DNA of 62,770 nucleotides. Source: an uncultured Candidatus Saccharibacteria bacterium. GTDB lineage: Bacteria; Patescibacteriota; Minisyncoccia; Phycocordibacterales; UBA9973. The position numbers and the translations under genes are program-made. The stretch covers positions 1 through 62,770 of the forward strand of contig CAYGDG010000005.1 of NCBI GenBank assembly GCA_964348725.1, written 5' to 3'. The notes under the pieces are model-generated. The model had not been told where the DNA came from. It saw nothing but the letters and a program-made list of their open reading frames with translations, and searched no databases. Of the stretch, positions 1-41,936 are shown one piece after another; the first letter of the stretch is position 1, and every line of letters starts with the position of its first letter.

Positions 1-525
<525 letters not shown>

Positions 526-14200: not shown

Positions 14201-14983
14201 ACCGCTGAGGTTAACTTTAACCCAAACAGTCTGAGTAGTACCAGCAGCAACCACGATAGGATCGGTGACAAAAGTCATCGTCGCTACACCGTTAGCTCCG
14301 AGGGAGGTAACAACGTTTCCATGGCGCACACCAGAACCGTCATATACGGAGACACCGGAAATATTGGTGTTTGCGTAATAGCCAGTCTTGGTGAGGTTAA
14401 GACCAGTGATGTTAACAGAACCAGTTGTGCCATTAGCAATGCTAAGAGCAAGAACAGGATTGTTAGCAGTCTTGGTAGCAACTACAGCTGAAGCTGGATT
14501 GGAAGAGCTTAAAGCTACGGTAACCATACCAGTTACTGGAACAGTCGTGCCGTTAGGAGCCATTGAGCAATTGCTTGCCAATGTCATACCGTTAGGGCAG
14601 AGGCTACCTGGGGTCGCTGGATTAGCGACTACAGTACCAGCAGCTACGAGAGCAGCGCGGGACTTTGCTCCAAAGATGCCGTCAGCAACGAGGCTGTTTG
14701 CAGCTTGGAAAGTCTTCACGGCAGCCAATGTTGCATTGCCGAAGTAAGTGGTCTCCTTACCAGCGGAGCCGGCACCAGTGCCGTCTACGTTGTAACCTTT
14801 TTCGTTAAGCATCTCTTGGAGACACTTAACTTCTGAATTCTTCATACCTTTTTTCAAGAAGGTCATGGAGAAAGATGCGCAGCTTGCAGCGTTAGCTGTA
14901 TTTGCGAGAGCGAAAGCTCCGACAAACATAACTGCGAGCATCATCACTCCAAGGAGGAATTTTGATGTAAATGAATTACTCAT
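11255..14983 (-). CDS. Large S-layer-like surface protein with N-terminal peptidoglycan-binding domain
   Basis: Signal peptide; EVKCLQEMLN...FGNATLAAVKTFQ...DGIFG; repeated Thr/Ser/Ala-rich beta-sandwich modules. Confidence 0.85.
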   Translation of the reverse strand: MSNSFTSKFLLGVMMLAVMFVGAFALANTANAASCASFSMTFLKKGMKNSEVKCLQEMLNEKGYNVDGTGAGSAGKETTYFGNATLAAVKTFQAANSLVADGIFGAKSRAALVAAGTVVANPATPGSLCPNGMTLASNCSMAPNGTTVPVTGMVTVALSSSNPASAVVATKTANNPVLALSIANGTTGSVNITGLNLTKTGYYANTNISGVSVYDGSGVRHGNVVTSLGANGVATMTFVTDPIVVAAGTTQTVWVKVNLSGTDTGTVGFNVNSATDVMVSGGTVTSSFPIVGNQMSIVNGTNSVATVTVDVLPVNSTGASLNADANASQDISKFRIQETSSNEDVKLYGLTLWNNGNASATDYKDVQLVDSAGNILATAQPNGQNVQFVLTAPYSITKGQTKDFWVRAKIVAGASRTIQFVVYNDYDIDVRGVTTSAGLLPTAAGAIDTTFPIGDTTSVYNKVTVASGSFVFTRASDSSSTAVTPGATGVVLAKYIAKPIGESMELRAISFGLDQNAGSVNLTGTVYVKVNGAIVFSAAANTTNFPAAGTASSRSLSSYPILNAGAENTIEVVADVSSSATSSDSYFVNDFDITSVKRLLTNDITDPSVSAIDGYTRAVQSAKINVTTLSTPVATSVVAGTNGVELANFQFDATSSGEDVRISSITVTDTLGSGVDYSGIANLTLKDATGNVLTTTSSTSVNANTVTFNLSNPVYVTRTTPVTLKLYGDVISATGVSHTFKIADENVTATGKDTGNSITLANQVGTGSGQAMTVVAAGTLTSSVLSGTNATPSVARNVNIGSQDVTAFAFRLNSQYEAQKVTTLTLKAIANAGIRATRTVAVGAVPADEEDVTIGQCVIEFETTTGSEDSDCSDDAAEINRTTNNTAALIATAMRAITGANDANGNIAFSGTGANVIATHAAVAAAAVAFTDNTTGDISSTSTTTGVVATGTLKVTDLANIELYAQSGNGTMTLFATAPQFASCTSNVCTYTWTSADNLLPSGMTVSPNTPVNVYTKADVQSPGIATLGDSFSMTLSSDGTDLIAKGVTTASAPAYAGAVVNNNGVVTNIVPFDVNVVGTYPTADTSLTVAAGTQLARFKIMNYGSAAVTITDVKLSDNGAHTATDWTYNLYSSNENGNTYLSTLVDNDGTDNSANVVDFGSLDSSFTISGGSYKYITVYLSAGTVATGDNVAFGVAALGDIDYSVAETDLGYDGNVDGDTQDTITGLPTSGLPVNASFSAL

Positions 14984-15231
14984 AATTATTATTAATTTGC
15001 ATGCGCGTTAATTTGTTAGTTTCGACGTGCGCCGGTTTGTAATCCGGTGCACAACTAAGTTGCGCATATTTTATCAATCATCCCCTTTTTAATAAGAGAT
15101 GATTAGATATCTAAAATCTACTAATCGTTGAACACAAAAAACTATTTTATTTTCAACGATCATGCCCGCCGAAGGCGGACAAGTGTACGGCGAAACGCGA
15201 AAAAAAATTCGCGCCTTCCGAACACAGCTCC

Positions 15232-15276
15232 ATTATAATATGCCTGTAAATAACAGGGCAAATATAATGTGGATAA
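15232..15276 (-). promoter_or_regulatory. Promoter with DnaA-type box (TTATCCACA-30 bp-TATAAT) and ~240-nt leader
   Basis: Box 15268-15276, -10 at 15232-15237. Confidence 0.7.
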
Positions 15277-15472
15277 CTCATGCTTTTCAGCACGATTTAC
15301 CTGAAGCCTATATTCGCATATTTCAGGCGCAAATGCAACCTGTACAAATAGGAAGACTTCACTATATATAACGTATCAAAAGGAGGTATATTTCAGGTTT
15401 TTTACCGCACCACAGATTGTCTACTTTGCCAAGAAATAGCGGCTCCCCGCCACAGGCGGGCAGGCACCGCTT

Positions 15473-16342
15473 CTACCTGTCCTTTATAAAATATTTACTC
15501 CATCTTTTTTCCCCAACTTTTTTTAATAAACCATTTTGCACCATGGAGGCCAGCTCGCGCTGGAGGGTTTTCTCCCCGCAATTCGCGAGCGTGCCCTCCG
15601 CGGCAAGGCGGATGTCTGATATGGTAGCGCTTTTCTTCCCCTCCACGGCGGGCGAGTCTTTTATGATTTTCAAGATTTCATTTCGGCGATCTTTCTTTAG
15701 GACATCAAAATCAGATGTCCGTGAGGCAAGACCTAGCATGCTAGGTCTTGCCTCACCTGTTTTGTCTTTTATTTTGTCCGAGATGGCTTTCATAAGTGTG
15801 CCGCCTCTTTGTACGCCGATGCGCATGTTTCCCTCTTCTGGGGTGGCTCGGTGAAGAACCTCACCCCTGCCCCTCTCCTTATTAAGGAGAGGGGGAAAAT
15901 CCTCCACCTCCCCCTTTGGGTACTCCTCAAGAGGAGAATTAAAATCCAAAAACCCCTCCAAAGAAAACTCATGTTTTGGCTGGATTAATTTTTCAAATTC
16001 ACACGCCAAGATAGTGCGATTCATGTCTGAAATCATGCCCATGGTGCCGGCTATGTCCAAGAGCGCGATGATCGCATGAAACTTGGAAGTTGGACTTCCA
16101 CTTGGAAGTCCAACTTCCAAGTTTGTGTCCGATAGGACATCCGTACCAAGAGAACGCAGTTTCAGCCTTATAGGTTCAGTATTGTCCATTATGTCCGTTA
16201 CCATGTAGAGCGCAGTTATAAGCTTTTTAAGCTTTTCGGACCCCTCCCTTCGCCCTCCCCTTACTAAGGGGAGGGTTGGGGTGGGGTACACATTGTCCGA
16301 GAGATTTTTTGCGTTGTGTTCGCCGTTATTCATGAAGTCCAT
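15473..16342 (-). CDS. Hypothetical protein with C-terminal winged helix, carrying several in-frame palindromic insertions
   Basis: KLKKLITALYMVTD N-terminal domain; RRNEILKII...EKTLQRELASMV..GLLKKVGEKRWSKY wHTH. Confidence 0.8.
   Translation of the reverse strand: MDFMNNGEHNAKNLSDNVYPTPTLPLVRGGRREGSEKLKKLITALYMVTDIMDNTEPIRLKLRSLGTDVLSDTNLEVGLPSGSPTSKFHAIIALLDIAGTMGMISDMNRTILACEFEKLIQPKHEFSLEGFLDFNSPLEEYPKGEVEDFPPLLNKERGRGEVLHRATPEEGNMRIGVQRGGTLMKAISDKIKDKTGEARPSMLGLASRTSDFDVLKKDRRNEILKIIKDSPAVEGKKSATISDIRLAAEGTLANCGEKTLQRELASMVQNGLLKKVGEKRWSKYFIKDR
15721..15756. repeat. REP-like palindrome family B (AGG-CAAGA-CCT dimer), in frame
   Basis: Perfect 36-bp palindrome GTGAGGCAAGACCTAGCA|TGCTAGGTCTTGCCTCAC. 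Confidence 0.9.
16079..16124. repeat. REP-like palindrome family C (GGAAG-TCCAA-CTTCC dimer), in frame
   Basis: 22-bp perfect arms with a 2-nt centre. Confidence 0.9.
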
Positions 16343-36868: not shown

Positions 36869-37513
36869 CTATTTTAGCACGAAGTTCTGGAGCTCTGAAA
36901 TTATTGGTTGTATTGTCTCGTCAGTGATATCTTCCGGCTGTATTTTACATTTACTAAATATCTGCTTTTCAATTTGGGTAAAAAGATTGTAAGAATTTTC
37001 CGCATACTCTTCGCTTATTCTCTTGTCTCTGTTTTTCCACTCAGTCACCCGTTCTCGTAATCCGAGGACGCCTTTAGGGCCTACACGGAAGTCCACGTAT
37101 TTGCAAATTAAAATATCAGCATTCAGGCTAGAATCGCTTTTCTCTATCATTTTAGTAGTAATCGCTTCCACAAGCTCAAAAGTTTTACCATCAATTCCTA
37201 ATTCTTTCACTATCGCAAAAGTTGCCAAGTGGTCATCTGTACCGTATTTTTCGATAAATTCTTTCTGGATGCCTTGCCAGTATTCGAATCCTTGCTGTGC
37301 AAAAAATTCAGGGAAGTAATTTTTTGTATATTCCAAGTCGAACTTCACTATATTGCCCATGTCGTGCAACAAGCATGCTTCTATAATATTTTCTTTCGGT
37401 AAAGGTTCGTCAAAATTATCACAGACCGTAGCAGCTACGGCAGCTACGCGCAGCATATGCTCGCGGAGCTGGGGCATTATTTTATATGTATCATATATTT
37501 CTTGAATTTTCAT
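36869..37513 (-). CDS. HD domain protein
   Basis: HMLRVA, LLHDMG, YVDFRV. Confidence 0.85.
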   Translation of the reverse strand: MKIQEIYDTYKIMPQLREHMLRVAAVAATVCDNFDEPLPKENIIEACLLHDMGNIVKFDLEYTKNYFPEFFAQQGFEYWQGIQKEFIEKYGTDDHLATFAIVKELGIDGKTFELVEAITTKMIEKSDSSLNADILICKYVDFRVGPKGVLGLRERVTEWKNRDKRISEEYAENSYNLFTQIEKQIFSKCKIQPEDITDETIQPIISELQNFVLK

Positions 37514-40500
37514 TATTTTTCTATCTTTATTTCTTCGCCATCCGCGTAAGCGATCCCGGAGATTCCGGCGGATTTTTTGAAATCGTTTTCAAATTTTGAA
37601 ATGATGTCTTTCATTTTTGTCGGAATGGTAATTTTTACGACATCTCCCGGATTGAGCCCTTCTGTCTTTCGTAAATCCTGCACTGTGCGTACGAATTCAC
37701 GATATTCGCCTTCTTCTTTGAGTTCGGGGGTAAGGGTGGTATCGAGCAATACTTCAGCTTCTATGCCCGCATCTTCGGAGACAGTTTTCACATTCAGCTC
37801 GTCTTTCAATATTTCGGAATATTCGCCGGAAAGCTGCCAGCTCTTCACCTTCAATCCGGCGAGCGGCTGGCGCACGGGGATGCCCGCTTTCTGTCTTTCT
37901 TTCAATGCGGCGGAAACAGTCTCGCGCGTCATTCTCATATTCTCAAGAATGTCGGAATGTTCTTTTACCTCTATCTGCATCCAATCGGAAAGATGCACGC
38001 TCTGGGCATCGCCTTCGTGGCATAGACGCAGCCAGATATCTTCAGCGGAAAATGGGGCAAAGGGGGCGAGGAGTTTTGAAATATTTTTCAGCACGAAATA
38101 TAAAGTTTGTTTTGCATCGGCATCGCCGTCTTTGATTCTCTCGCGGCTGCGGCGCAAATACCAGGTGGAAAGATCGCCGATGAGGTCACGAATAGCGCGA
38201 GCGGGTTCAAGCGGCTTGTATTCATCTAAATTTTTTTCAGTGAAGGTGACGGTCTCTTCCAATCTCGCCAAGATCCACGCGTCCAGCACATTTTTTGATG
38301 CCGGTCGGTCATTATTTTCCAGATTCTTGTCGCGGTACAGCTCATAGAATGCGAGCACATTGTACAGCAAGCCGAATACTTGGCGATGCAGTTCAAGTAC
38401 AGTTTTTTCATCAAAATTTTTAGACTCACCCGGCTGGTTTACGGAATACATCCAAAGACGAATTGTGTCCGCGCCATATTTTTCAAACATCATCCAAGGG
38501 TCTACTACATTACCTTTTGATTTACTCATTTTTTGCCCTTTCTCATCTAAAATATGCCCGAGGCAAATGACATTTTTATATGCGAAATTCGCTTTGTCGG
38601 AAAGCAGATTCGCTACCGCGTGCAGAGTATAAAACCAGCCACGCGTCTGATCTATCGCCTCAGAAATATAATCTGCTTTAGCTGGAGAAAAATCCATTGT
38701 CTCGCCAAGCATATGATCTTGCGCATACGGCATAGCACCCGAATCAAACCACACATCCATCACCTCGCTCGTGCGCGTCATTTTTTCTCCATTATCTTCC
38801 AACTCCACCGTATCGATATATGGCTTGTGAAAATCCAATTCAAAATTTTTATTGTGCGGAAGTGGTGTAAAATCTAATTCTTTTATTTCTGCATTTTTGA
38901 AATAATGATAATCTTTTTTATCACGAATTAAATTCAAGGATTCTTCGGCTGTAAAACCCGCAGCTCCGGTAAACAAAAGCCATGCTGGTCCGCCATGAGT
39001 GACAAATAAAATATTTTTATCTTTATATTTTTCTTCTATTTCATACAAAAATGCTGTCATGCGATTTTTAACATCTTGATATGATTCATCTTTTTCTATA
39101 TGTTTATTAAAATTCTCTACCGTCTTTGTGTGGTACGCATGATACTCTTCCCAGCTTTTACCGTCAAAAGAATACGCGCCCATCTCTCGCAATCTTTCAT
39201 CTATGATTACACTGTCTTTGGCTAAACCGATTTTTTCTCGTACAATTTCAGCAGTCTCTTGGGTGCGAGTAAAATCAGAAACAAAAATCAAATCTATTTT
39301 TTTATCTTTCAAACTTTCAGCAGAATTTTCTACTTGTTTTTTTCCTTCTTCATCCAAATGCCATTTACCAGAAGGAAGCGAGCAAATAATATTTTTTACA
39401 TTGGCTTCTGTTTCTCCATGTCGCATCACAAAATACTTATTTCTAGACTTTTTGGTATATTTTTTCAAATCTGAAAGTGATGCAATTACTTTGTGTTCGC
39501 CATTTTCTTTTTGCCATACTGGAAGCGGAGTTCCCCAATATCTATCTCGGGAAATCGCCCAGTCTTTGATACCATCCAACCATTCTCCAAAACGACCATC
39601 TTTTATATGTTCTGGCTCCCAGTTTATTTCTTTATTTCCAGCGAGAAGTTGTTCACGAAGCGCGCTCATGCGGAAATACCATGATGTGCGAGCGTAATAA
39701 ATAAGCGGTGTATCACAACGCCAACAATGCGGATAGCTATGCAGATAATTTTCTTTCTTACACAGAAGCCCGCGTTTTGTAAGATCATCTACTATATCCA
39801 CTGCCAAAGTCGGCTTGCCATTTTCGTCCACTTCTTTCACATATCGCCCTTCCAAAAAGTCTGTGCCTGCAACAAATTTCCCCTCTTCGCTCACAGTATG
39901 AAATTTTGGTAAACCAATTTTTGTACCGAGCTCAAAGTCATCCGCACCGTACATCACCGCCGTGTGCACGATGCCCGTGCCGTCCGTCGTATTCACAAAA
40001 TCCGCCACATACACTTTATATGCTTTTTCGAGGTCGCCTGTATAATTTTCTTTCAAGAATGGGTACAGCGGTTCATATTGCATACCTACCATTTCCGAAC
40101 CTTTGTGTGTAGCGATGATCTCGTACTCTCCTTCGATGACCGAAAGCCGATCTTTCGCCAGCACTAATATTTCACTTCCCATTTTTATTTCCACATATTC
40201 TATATCCGCCCCTACCGCCAAAGCCACATTGCCCGGCAACGTCCACGGCGTGGTCGTCCACGCAAGGAAATAGGCGTCAGGAAAACCGACAATCTTAAAT
40301 TTCACATATACCGACAAATCTTTTACATCTTTGTATGCACCGGGCTGAGAAAGTTCGTGCGAGGACAATGCTGTGCCGCAACGCGTGCACCAAGGAAGCA
40401 CTTTGAAATCTTTATATAAATGCCCGCGTTCATTCGCTTTACCGATCACTCCCCAAAGTGCTTCGATATATTTATTTTCATAAGTGATATACGCATTATC

Positions 40501-40941
40501 CATATCCGTCCAATATCCCATCCTCTTGCGCATCTTCATCCACTCTTCTTTGTATTTCCAAACGCTCTCCTTGCATTTCTGATTAAAAAGCTCCACGCCG
40601 TATGTCTCAATATCTTTTTTTGATTTCAAGCCAAGTTCTTTTTCCACCTGAAGTTCCACCGGCAAACCGTGCGTATCCCAACCGGCTTTGCGGGGCACGT
40701 GAAAACCCTGCATTGTCTTATAGCGAGGAATCGCGTCTTTGAAAGATTGCGGCTCTACGTGATGCAAACCAGGCATACCGTTCGCCGTCGGCGGACCATC
40801 ATAAAAAATAAAATCTTTTTTACCTTTATTTTTAGCGAGGGATTTCTCAAAAATTTTATTCTCCTTCCAAAATTCCAGAACCCGCTCTTCGCGCAGAGCG
40901 CTTTCACTTTTTATTTCTTTTTTTTCTGTATTATCTTCCAT
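37513..40941 (-). CDS. ileS: Isoleucine-tRNA ligase (type 2) with inserted histidine-phosphatase domain
   Basis: DGPPTANGMPGLHH, GWDTHGLPVE, KMSKS; insert RHGE...DFTRTQET...THGG at ~38870-39445. Confidence 0.96.
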   Translation of the reverse strand: MEDNTEKKEIKSESALREERVLEFWKENKIFEKSLAKNKGKKDFIFYDGPPTANGMPGLHHVEPQSFKDAIPRYKTMQGFHVPRKAGWDTHGLPVELQVEKELGLKSKKDIETYGVELFNQKCKESVWKYKEEWMKMRKRMGYWTDMDNAYITYENKYIEALWGVIGKANERGHLYKDFKVLPWCTRCGTALSSHELSQPGAYKDVKDLSVYVKFKIVGFPDAYFLAWTTTPWTLPGNVALAVGADIEYVEIKMGSEILVLAKDRLSVIEGEYEIIATHKGSEMVGMQYEPLYPFLKENYTGDLEKAYKVYVADFVNTTDGTGIVHTAVMYGADDFELGTKIGLPKFHTVSEEGKFVAGTDFLEGRYVKEVDENGKPTLAVDIVDDLTKRGLLCKKENYLHSYPHCWRCDTPLIYYARTSWYFRMSALREQLLAGNKEINWEPEHIKDGRFGEWLDGIKDWAISRDRYWGTPLPVWQKENGEHKVIASLSDLKKYTKKSRNKYFVMRHGETEANVKNIICSLPSGKWHLDEEGKKQVENSAESLKDKKIDLIFVSDFTRTQETAEIVREKIGLAKDSVIIDERLREMGAYSFDGKSWEEYHAYHTKTVENFNKHIEKDESYQDVKNRMTAFLYEIEEKYKDKNILFVTHGGPAWLLFTGAAGFTAEESLNLIRDKKDYHYFKNAEIKELDFTPLPHNKNFELDFHKPYIDTVELEDNGEKMTRTSEVMDVWFDSGAMPYAQDHMLGETMDFSPAKADYISEAIDQTRGWFYTLHAVANLLSDKANFAYKNVICLGHILDEKGQKMSKSKGNVVDPWMMFEKYGADTIRLWMYSVNQPGESKNFDEKTVLELHRQVFGLLYNVLAFYELYRDKNLENNDRPASKNVLDAWILARLEETVTFTEKNLDEYKPLEPARAIRDLIGDLSTWYLRRSRERIKDGDADAKQTLYFVLKNISKLLAPFAPFSAEDIWLRLCHEGDAQSVHLSDWMQIEVKEHSDILENMRMTRETVSAALKERQKAGIPVRQPLAGLKVKSWQLSGEYSEILKDELNVKTVSEDAGIEAEVLLDTTLTPELKEEGEYREFVRTVQDLRKTEGLNPGDVVKITIPTKMKDIISKFENDFKKSAGISGIAYADGEEIKIEK

Positions 40942-40961
40942 AATTTTTATTATCTACTATA

Positions 40962-41140
40962 TAAAATAAAAAACCCGTCCCCGTAAAACAATTAAATAAT
41001 TGCTCTACAAGGACGAGTTTCCCCGTGGTACCACCTTGCTTTTTACCCGCCTGTGGCGGGACTTCTCATTTACTGGGCTCTACTTCCCTTTCGGGTTTCT
41101 TCCCAAAGCTCCGGGGTGATAGCCCCTTCATCGCTTATGT
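40962..41140 (-). promoter_or_regulatory. T-box riboswitch (Ile, AUC specifier) with intrinsic terminator
   Basis: GGGGCT-ATC-ACCCCG stem I; GGAAGAA/AGTAGAGCCCAGTA stem II/IIA; T-box AAGGTGGTACCACGG (41021-41037); 21-bp terminator stem plus U tract. Confidence 0.88.
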
Positions 41141-41219
41141 TCATATTACTAAAATCTTCAAAATTAGGCAAATGAAATCCCCGGACCGAAATCCGGGGAT
41201 TTTTTCTCTAATTAAGTAA

Positions 41220-41936
41220 TTACAAAGCCTGAACAGTACTCCATTCAATGCGGCCTGCAGAAACTTCCTGAACAGCTTCTCCTCGGCGAAAGATTCTTGC
41301 ACCACCTTTACCTATTAAGGTAACTTGGGACGATTCTTTCCTGACCAAAAGACTTGTCCCTTCCCGCAAAGCAATTATCGGGGTCCAGTTCTCCTGATGA
41401 AATTCATTGAGGCGTTGCTCCCGTGTCTCTCCTTTGTGGGTTGATTTAGGGTCCGGGTCCTGGTAATGCGGATTAATTTGAAATGGGACTAGGGACAGCG
41501 CGCGAAAACCCTGAGGGGGTACCATGATAGGCATATCGTTTGTAGTCATGATAGTCGGACCCGCAATATTGGTACCCGCGCTTGAGCCGATGTATTTCGT
41601 TCCACTGGCCACTAATTCCTGAATCATTCCAAAATAGTCTCCTTGTTGTAAGTTTGTCAGAAGCCGGAAAGTATTGCCGCCTCCGACAAATATTGCCTTT
41701 TCACCATAAGGAATCCTGTCTGCTCTATGCAATCCAATTACCTGGATGTTAAGTGAGGCAAAAAAGGTTTGGACTTGCTCAGTGTAAGAATCCCATTCGC
41801 TTTTCTCTTTTGCAAATGGGACAAAGGTTATTTTTTCAATGCCATCAAGAAAGGACTTAAGTGTTCCTTTCATGTGTTCAAGATACCCGCTTCCGTGCAC
41901 GAAGGAGCTGGAGATAAGGAGGATGTTTTCTTTCAT
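41220..41936 (-). CDS. pepE: Dipeptidase E (peptidase S51)
   Basis: VGGGNTFRLL, IGSSAG, PFQINPHY, GETREQRL.EF. Confidence 0.95.
   Translation of the reverse strand: MKENILLISSSFVHGSGYLEHMKGTLKSFLDGIEKITFVPFAKEKSEWDSYTEQVQTFFASLNIQVIGLHRADRIPYGEKAIFVGGGNTFRLLTNLQQGDYFGMIQELVASGTKYIGSSAGTNIAGPTIMTTNDMPIMVPPQGFRALSLVPFQINPHYQDPDPKSTHKGETREQRLNEFHQENWTPIIALREGTSLLVRKESSQVTLIGKGGARIFRRGEAVQEVSAGRIEWSTVQAL

Follow-up and report, generated by a model that had tools for sequence, protein, structure and literature searches.

The leader directly upstream of ileS, on the minus strand at 41136-40963 of the window (the whole 62,770-nucleotide stretch of DNA that was analysed), is probably a T-box riboswitch that senses tRNA-Ile and regulates ileS through attenuation of transcription. 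We put the probability of this reading at about 0.8. Judged by its sequence, the leader joins a class III sensor to a transcription terminator, a combination shared by the whole CPR family to which it belongs. The sequence-only reading of this DNA had proposed an ultrashort stem I with an Ile AUC codon in its terminal loop, stem II/IIA motifs, and a T-box followed by a 21-bp stem and a U tract. All the motifs that it quoted were found on the minus strand at the positions it gave. The features of the locus are listed below in the order of transcription.

41220-41936: pepE-like gene (PepE), the neighbour upstream of the ileS leader.
About 41172-41200, minus strand: separate terminator hairpin of the upstream pepE-like gene, read from the sequence.
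41143-41148, minus strand: candidate -10 hexamer TAATAT, with a weak -35 TTGCCT 17 nt upstream.
41134-41108, minus strand: stem I, GCGAUGAAGGGG-CUAUCA-CCCCGGAGC, from the Rfam alignment and covariation.
41120-41118, minus strand: specifier AUC (Ile), followed by a conserved purine, A, at 41117.
41106-41073, minus strand: stem II, a nested pairing backed by covariation.
41061-41072, minus strand: purine-rich conserved linker UAAAUGAGAAGU of 12 nt, which occupies the place that the stem IIA/B pseudoknot (F box) has in other T-boxes.
41060-41042, minus strand: hairpin at the stem III position, CCCGCC-ACA-GGCGGG plus UAAA, with a 6-bp stem at 41060-41046; located by folding and as a copy of a repeat family.
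41038-41008, minus strand: T-box/antiterminator, CAAGG[UGGUACC]ACGGG-GAAA-CUCGU-CCUUG, from the Rfam alignment.
41019-40972, minus strand: terminator hairpin of 22 bp, from folding, a terminator scan and covariation.
40973-40963, minus strand: U tract UUUUUUAUUUU (U6AU4), directly after the hairpin, from the sequence and the terminator scan.
37513-40941, minus strand: ileS, the gene predicted to be regulated, an ORF of 1142 aa (TIGR00392, 856 bits).

The intergenic interval between the pepE-like gene and ileS comprises 280 bases, in which the pepE terminator comes first and the structured leader follows. Since the pepE-like gene has a terminator hairpin of its own, ileS and its leader would form their own transcription unit. 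A consensus scan found no promoter above threshold at the ileS leader. Relatives have TAnnnT or extended -10 boxes at the same distance as the candidate TAATAT, and the ileS transcript would begin a few nucleotides before the K-turn. The ATG of ileS is at 40941; the gene starts 26 nt past the first U run, and about 30 nt lie between the end of the terminator hairpin and the start codon. The gene encodes the sole IleRS of the genome, as tblastn against the 957-kb, 26-contig assembly found no second ileS. A second T-box was likewise not found in the genome, either with the Rfam model or with a purpose-built covariance model. The IleRS carries a complete His_Phos_1 domain in its catalytic body (residues 504-670, window 38932-39432 on the minus strand; 118 bits) in which the RHG motif is kept, and tblastn found this histidine-phosphatase insert in 53 related CPR ileS loci.

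A scan of the window at the Rfam gathering thresholds reported no T-box; the 5' end of a 23S rRNA was its only match. This rRNA end lies at the window edge (1-525, minus strand), with no tRNA spacer upstream. In an E-value scan of the region 40850-41300, a covariance-model search of the kind that the sequence-only reading had named as a check, RF00230 matched 41006-41140 of the minus strand at 49.6 bits (E = 5e-10), which is below the curated gathering threshold of 93 bits. The match was aligned across the whole model, with 76 positions of the distal stem I replaced by 6 nt, and the score falls below the threshold because the distal stem I is missing. As a control, the leader from a Clostridia MAG (L071), which encodes one of the nearest non-CPR IleRS (about 50% identity), proved to be an ordinary full-length T-box (126.9 bits). 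Among the genomes of 61 relatives, 23 contained a sub-threshold RF00230 match and none reached the Rfam cut-off.

The nearest IleRS genes belong to Paceibacteria/Nomurabacteria MAGs (Patescibacteria/CPR), and the same leader was present at about 30 of 55 such ileS loci. We built a covariance model from 15 leaders with deduced structure and searched 83 sources. This model found 55 leaders in Paceibacteria loci, 53 of them distinct; about 40 Paceibacteria ileS leaders have this design. In the alignment, which was fitted to the covariance model, 93.5% of the cells held standard pairs, compared with 36-51% when the partners were slid by 1-3 columns. Both sides had changed in 20 of the 24 pairs, including all stem I pairs, the K-turn base pairs and the stem II helices. 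The survey of CPR ileS leaders that had also been proposed as a check was answered in the affirmative: 53 related leaders are built in the same way, and each helix shows covariation. Across the phylum, the purpose-built model detected such leaders in 51 of 401 sampled genomes and 41 of 319 genera. Mapped on the IleRS tree, gain or loss of the T-box occurred at least 12 times, and there were at least 5 changes in IIA/B and at least 10 in stem III.

Leaders of the same design precede other synthetase genes in relatives, and specifier and bulge change together with the gene. The aspS leaders have GAC or AAC as specifier and UGGC as bulge, and the thrS leaders have ACC and UGGA. Short-stem terminator-type leaders were seen at aspS in L084, L085, L087, L091, L097, L099 and L105 and at thrS in L094, L096, L101, L102, L106 and L107. 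The apparent specifier of the aspS leaders L087, L099 and L105 is AAC (Asn), not GAC; these three might monitor tRNA-Asn for a non-discriminating AspRS.

Some ileS genes of relatives have no T-box. These genes share a block, (T)TTTATGTTAAAATCAGCCAATAATGGCTGAAAA, which has the look of an extended -10 box and lies about 12 nt before the start codon (L005, L015-L017, L023, L027, L029, L031, L033, L038-L040, L042, L043, L046, L048, L050 and L053); it looks as though their leader is very short or absent. In the 'same genus' genomes L082, L090 and L095, the same leader stands before another form of IleRS (PPFATG...HYGH, about 42% identical), which points to replacement of the synthetase gene behind a leader that was kept, or else to movement of the leader.

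Stem I consists of a K-turn (GC, a GAU bulge, and G.A and A.G pairs), a 4-bp helix GGGG/CCCC and a 6-nt apical loop, CUAUCA. It has no distal T-loop platform (IDTM), no AG bulge and no distal loop. All four helix pairs and both base pairs showed compensatory changes among the 53 leaders, with 96-98% of the cells paired, and A17, U18, C19 and A20 did not vary among the 15 seed sequences. The anticodon of tRNA-Ile(GAU) fits the specifier AUC, as does the downstream gene, ileS. The ultrashort stem I with an Ile AUC in its terminal loop was therefore borne out by the sequence, the Rfam alignment and the covariation across the 53 leaders.

Stem II, UUGGG[AAGAA]CCC-GAAA-GGG[AAGUAGAG]CCCAG, is a helix interrupted by an S-turn of the AGUA/GAA type. 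Its lower helix is UUGGG/CCCAG, its S-turn internal loop is 5'-AAGAA / 5'-AGUAGAG, and its upper helix is CCC-GAAA-GGG. The lower helix was paired in 97% of the cells and the upper in 95%, with 13-21 double changes per pair, and the residues GAA and UA(GA) were invariant or nearly so in the 15-sequence seed. Of the 'stem II/IIA motifs' that had been proposed, stem II with its S-turn stands and stem IIA/B is absent. A 'stem IIA' drawn from the MFE fold and the Rfam alignment, in which UUUGGG pairs with CCCGAA and GGG...CCC stands separately, was rejected because relatives cannot form it while the nested stem II covaries. In the nested pairing, the GGG...CCC that had been drawn as 'stem IIA' is the closing helix of stem II.

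The T-box sequence (GGUGGUACC / GGUGGUACCACG / AAGGUGGUACCACG) presents a 7-nt bulge, UGGUACC, at 41033-41027. The antiterminator is formed by helix A1 (CAAGG/CCUUG) and helix A2 (ACGGG-GAAA-CUCGU), with a folding energy of -8.4 kcal/mol. A1 was paired in 98.5% of the cells and A2 in 93%, and compensatory changes were seen. The genome has two genes for tRNA-Ile(GAU), which lie on contigs of 130 kb and 2.5 kb. The discriminator of either tRNA is A73, complementary to the last U of UGGU (U107), so that UGGU faces the tRNA end ACCA. Contig C18 (2.5 kb, of higher G+C) carries a canonical tRNA-Ile/tRNA-Ala pair. Several small contigs, with a G+C content of 55-68% where the others have about 45%, are possible contaminants.

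The terminator stem comprises 22 bp, or 26 when the A-U pairs with the U tract are counted. Its folding energy is -29 kcal/mol, and -33 kcal/mol with the extra A-U pairs (z = -10.3 against shuffles). The '21-bp stem and U tract' of the sequence-only reading thus stands as a hairpin followed by a U tract, with the length of the stem corrected. In a plain MAFFT alignment of 32 Ile leaders, which was not fitted to structure, the terminator helix was 94.9% paired, compared with about 42% when slid, and 13 of the 22 pairs showed compensatory changes. The strand CUCGUCCUUG is at once the 3' strand of the antiterminator and the 5' arm of the terminator. The proposal that the terminator strand pairs with the T-box as an antiterminator is supported in that CUCGUCCUUG is common to both helices and both covary. 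Since the two structures share this strand, they should be mutually exclusive with 'off' as the default state; the terminator is favoured by about 20 kcal/mol over the antiterminator, as in classic T-boxes. In each of the 53 distinct leaders, the antiterminator's 3' strand doubles as the 5' arm of a hairpin of -18 to -33 kcal/mol, with a T run directly behind it.

We considered whether the switch could act on translation, like the actinobacterial class III elements, with the hairpin as a sequestrator that bars the ribosome from ileS. The sensor half is of a type described mostly for translational control (PMC10482949, PMC7583486), and only about 30 nt separate the end of the hairpin from the AUG. 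However, neither the 3' arm of the hairpin nor its surroundings hold an SD-like sequence. The spacer from the hairpin to the AUG in this leader, AUUUUAUAUAGUAGAUAAUAAAAAUU, is SD-free, and no Shine-Dalgarno sequence was found in or near the hairpin or in the AT-rich spacers of the 53 leaders. These spacers are mostly 4-50 nt long, but in several relatives the hairpin stands 100-280 nt from the start codon. The U tract, which is needed for intrinsic termination and useless for sequestration, follows the stem in 53 of 53 leaders. A conserved U tract together with a variable distance to the start codon fits intrinsic termination rather than the masking of a ribosome site, so SD sequestration was rejected and we regard control at translation as very unlikely. 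Transcriptional attenuation, as the sequence-only reading had proposed, is probably correct, as evidenced by the U tract in all 53 leaders, the absence of an SD, the shared strand and the matching tRNA.

The attenuation reading is weakened by the lack of both the elbow platform and the IIA/B pseudoknot, and also by the sub-threshold Rfam score and the weakly predicted promoter. Transcriptional T-boxes are argued on kinetic grounds to need an elbow-binding platform for timely capture of the tRNA (PMC7583486), which counts against attenuation here. In the class III T-box of N. farcinica, deletion of the IIA/B pseudoknot cut the tRNA affinity more than 1000-fold (PMC10482949, PMC10651847). The pseudoknot is absent from our leader, in which the 12-nt linker alone stands between stem II and the stem III hairpin. 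In relatives with IIA/B, a CGGG-UAAG-CCCG-UUAUAGC hairpin lies just 5' of the conserved UAAUGAGAAG, after stem II. This F-box hairpin is present in 19 relatives; our leader does not have it, nor do about 21 of 40 Ile leaders, and in 14 leaders stem III is missing too. On inspecting the alignments, we saw nothing that would make up for the lack of the pseudoknot, be it a stem I-II junction of greater length or a linker that covaries with another part.

The leader could be a decaying or constitutive element without useful tRNA binding, whose terminator only fixes a low level of ileS transcription. This would agree with the absence of the IDTM and IIA/B, both of which are reported to be essential (PMC10482949), with the patchy occurrence of the T-box among relatives (at least those 12 gains or losses on the IleRS tree) and with the repeat copy inside the leader. 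It is at odds with the AUCA specifier, the S-turn residues, the linker and the T-box bulge, which are invariant or nearly so, and with helices that stay paired through compensatory changes down to about 60% IleRS identity. The roughly 21 of 40 Ile leaders without IIA/B are equally conserved, and an unregulated terminator of -29 kcal/mol before a single essential gene would be costly. We consider decay improbable. The same two absences could instead mean that a helper, either a protein that binds the K-turn or the hairpin or a CPR-specific feature of the tRNA, replaces the platform and the pseudoknot. The known accelerating and organising elements are both missing, K-turn-binding proteins may assist T-boxes according to a review (PMC7583486), and one GC hairpin family recurs at several positions of these leaders. 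But no candidate protein was identified, the hairpin is missing from most members of the family, and ileS is the only conserved part of the locus, so the chance of such a helper appears very small.

Under the attenuation reading, the switch would work as follows. Transcription would begin a few bases before 41136. The nascent RNA would fold into the K-turn, the 4-bp stem I displaying AUC-A in its apical loop, and stem II with its S-turn; stems I and II would grip tRNA-Ile(GAU) by its anticodon stem-loop, in the manner of class III (Nocardia/Mycobacterium type), with no contact to the elbow. If the tRNA is uncharged, its ACCA end would pair with UGGU in the bulge and stabilise the weak antiterminator, and the polymerase would enter ileS. 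If the tRNA is charged or absent, the 22-bp terminator would form and transcription would end at the U tract, 26 nt short of the start codon. We infer tRNA binding, charge discrimination and actual termination from this architecture.

The hairpin at the stem III position belongs, at the level of sequence, to a family of mini-hairpin repeats in this genome. The sequence-only reading had regarded it as one of the short repeats, and the counts agree: the pattern CCCGCC-N2-5-GGCGGG, with a 3' tag [TC]A[AG][AG] (YARR), has 24 copies over all contigs, against at most 2 for any other all-GC 6-mer stem. The tag is found on 19 of the 24 copies (5.8% expected). Among the 47 hairpins with an all-GC 6-bp stem (contigs of about 43-47% G+C), 23 are CCCGCC...GGCGGG and the other stems account for at most 2 each. 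The pattern occurs four times in the window (3028, 15446, 32763 and 41046) against 0.11 expected, and also at 15165 with one mismatch. The genomes of seven relatives hold only 0-3 copies. Two GC hairpins lie in the intergenic stretch 14984-15472 (489 bp), which contains no convincing ORF; the Rfam scan of 14950-15500 gave no match at E <= 0.1.

Taking the 19-nt unit CCCGCCACAGGCGGGUAAA out of the leader leaves a linker identical to that of L088 and L100, two leaders without stem III (GAGAAGU|AAGCAAGG), and the nearest relatives, L002 and L004, do not have the hairpin; both observations favour an insertion. Against a recent insertion, L047 carries a comparable hairpin at this site although its genome lacks the repeat family, and UAAA usually follows stem III as a spacer in these T-boxes. 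A stem III of the CCGCC/GGCGG kind is found in many relatives, also in genomes without a repeat expansion, so the copy at stem III may be ancestral; alternatively, it may have been inserted and co-opted. The simpler view, in which stem III is just ancestral and CCCGCC hairpins are generic, was dropped after the stem counts (23 against at most 2).

Like hairpins were found in 5 of the 53 relatives' leaders against 0.07 expected, at four different positions. The CCGCC/GGCGG hairpins of L049, L014, L090 and L044 occur at the stem I apex or specifier loop, the stem I-II junction, the stem II apex and stem III; in L049 the hairpin is inside the specifier loop. The hairpins of this kind in relatives' leaders give the impression of modules plugged into loops that tolerate them.

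The T-box is the textbook example of one RNA reading another. In reviews, a long stem I is linked to fast co-transcriptional capture and a short stem I to slow, reversible translational control, and the CPR leaders break this pairing. We lean towards the view that Patescibacteria contain lineage-wide, unannotated minimal T-boxes in which the terminator decision is made by the anticodon clamp alone, without the platform, and in about half of the ileS leaders without IIA/B. If these are indeed RNA-only switches, the accepted reasons for the platform (fast capture) and for the pseudoknot (pre-organising stems I and II) need revision, and the smallest natural T-box aptamer would be about 65 nt. 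The leaders occur in many genera of a large, little-studied phylum, before single-copy essential synthetase genes, and were missed by the Rfam threshold. They allow the need for the elbow platform and for the IIA/B pseudoknot to be tested on a natural example, supply engineers with a tRNA-sensing module of very small size, and give a first handle on the sensing of amino-acid starvation in CPR bacteria, where regulation is almost unknown. The stem III hairpin further indicates that a genomic mini-repeat can sit within a predicted riboswitch.

Structures of class III ileS T-boxes are available from Nocardia farcinica (PDB 6UFM) and Mycobacterium tuberculosis (PDB 6UFG). The short-stem ileS T-boxes of this class were reportedly first described in Actinobacteria by Sherwood, Grundy and Henkin in 2015, who reportedly call 'many' of the leaders translational. 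Among the papers searched, none linked T-boxes with CPR or Patescibacteria. In the four-class scheme, class III has a short stem I without elbow platform, the specifier in a 5-6-nt apical loop and a required stem II, and classes III and IV 'mostly regulate translation initiation' (PMC10482949). The statement of the sequence-only reading that actinobacterial ileS T-boxes act on translation agrees with a review (PMC7583486) and is softened to 'mostly' in another paper (PMC10482949). Given this 'mostly' and the 'many' of 2015, the combination of a short stem with a terminator is perhaps not wholly unprecedented. The short-stem model of TBDB was built on Actinobacteria only (PMC7778990).

When compared by descriptions, our leader and the actinobacterial class III ileS elements share the K-turn, the platform-less short stem I, AUC plus a purine in a 5-6-nt apical loop, the S-turn of stem II, the T-box bulge, helices A1 and A2, and the regulated gene. 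They differ in output, which is a terminator with a U tract here and a Shine-Dalgarno sequestrator there. In contrast to the N. farcinica element, the leader has no IIA/B pseudoknot, and its host belongs to the Patescibacteria rather than the Actinobacteria.

With class I (Bacillus subtilis tyrS type, the RF00230 seed), the leader shares the competition between terminator and antiterminator, UGGN-NCCA pairing, the K-turn, the stem II S-turn, a hairpin at the stem III position and the control of an aminoacyl-tRNA synthetase gene. However, its stem I has 27 nt instead of about 90, it has no specifier internal loop, AG bulge, distal loop or IIA/B pseudoknot, and its score is below the family threshold. 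The stem III hairpin itself resembles REP-like mini-hairpin repeats in being a short GC palindrome with a short 3' tag that occurs between and within genes. Class II glyQS is likewise a naturally reduced transcriptional T-box without IIA/B, but the reduction is the reverse of that seen here: glyQS keeps the long stem I and the elbow platform and has no stem II, whereas our leader keeps stem II and has neither the long stem I nor the platform.
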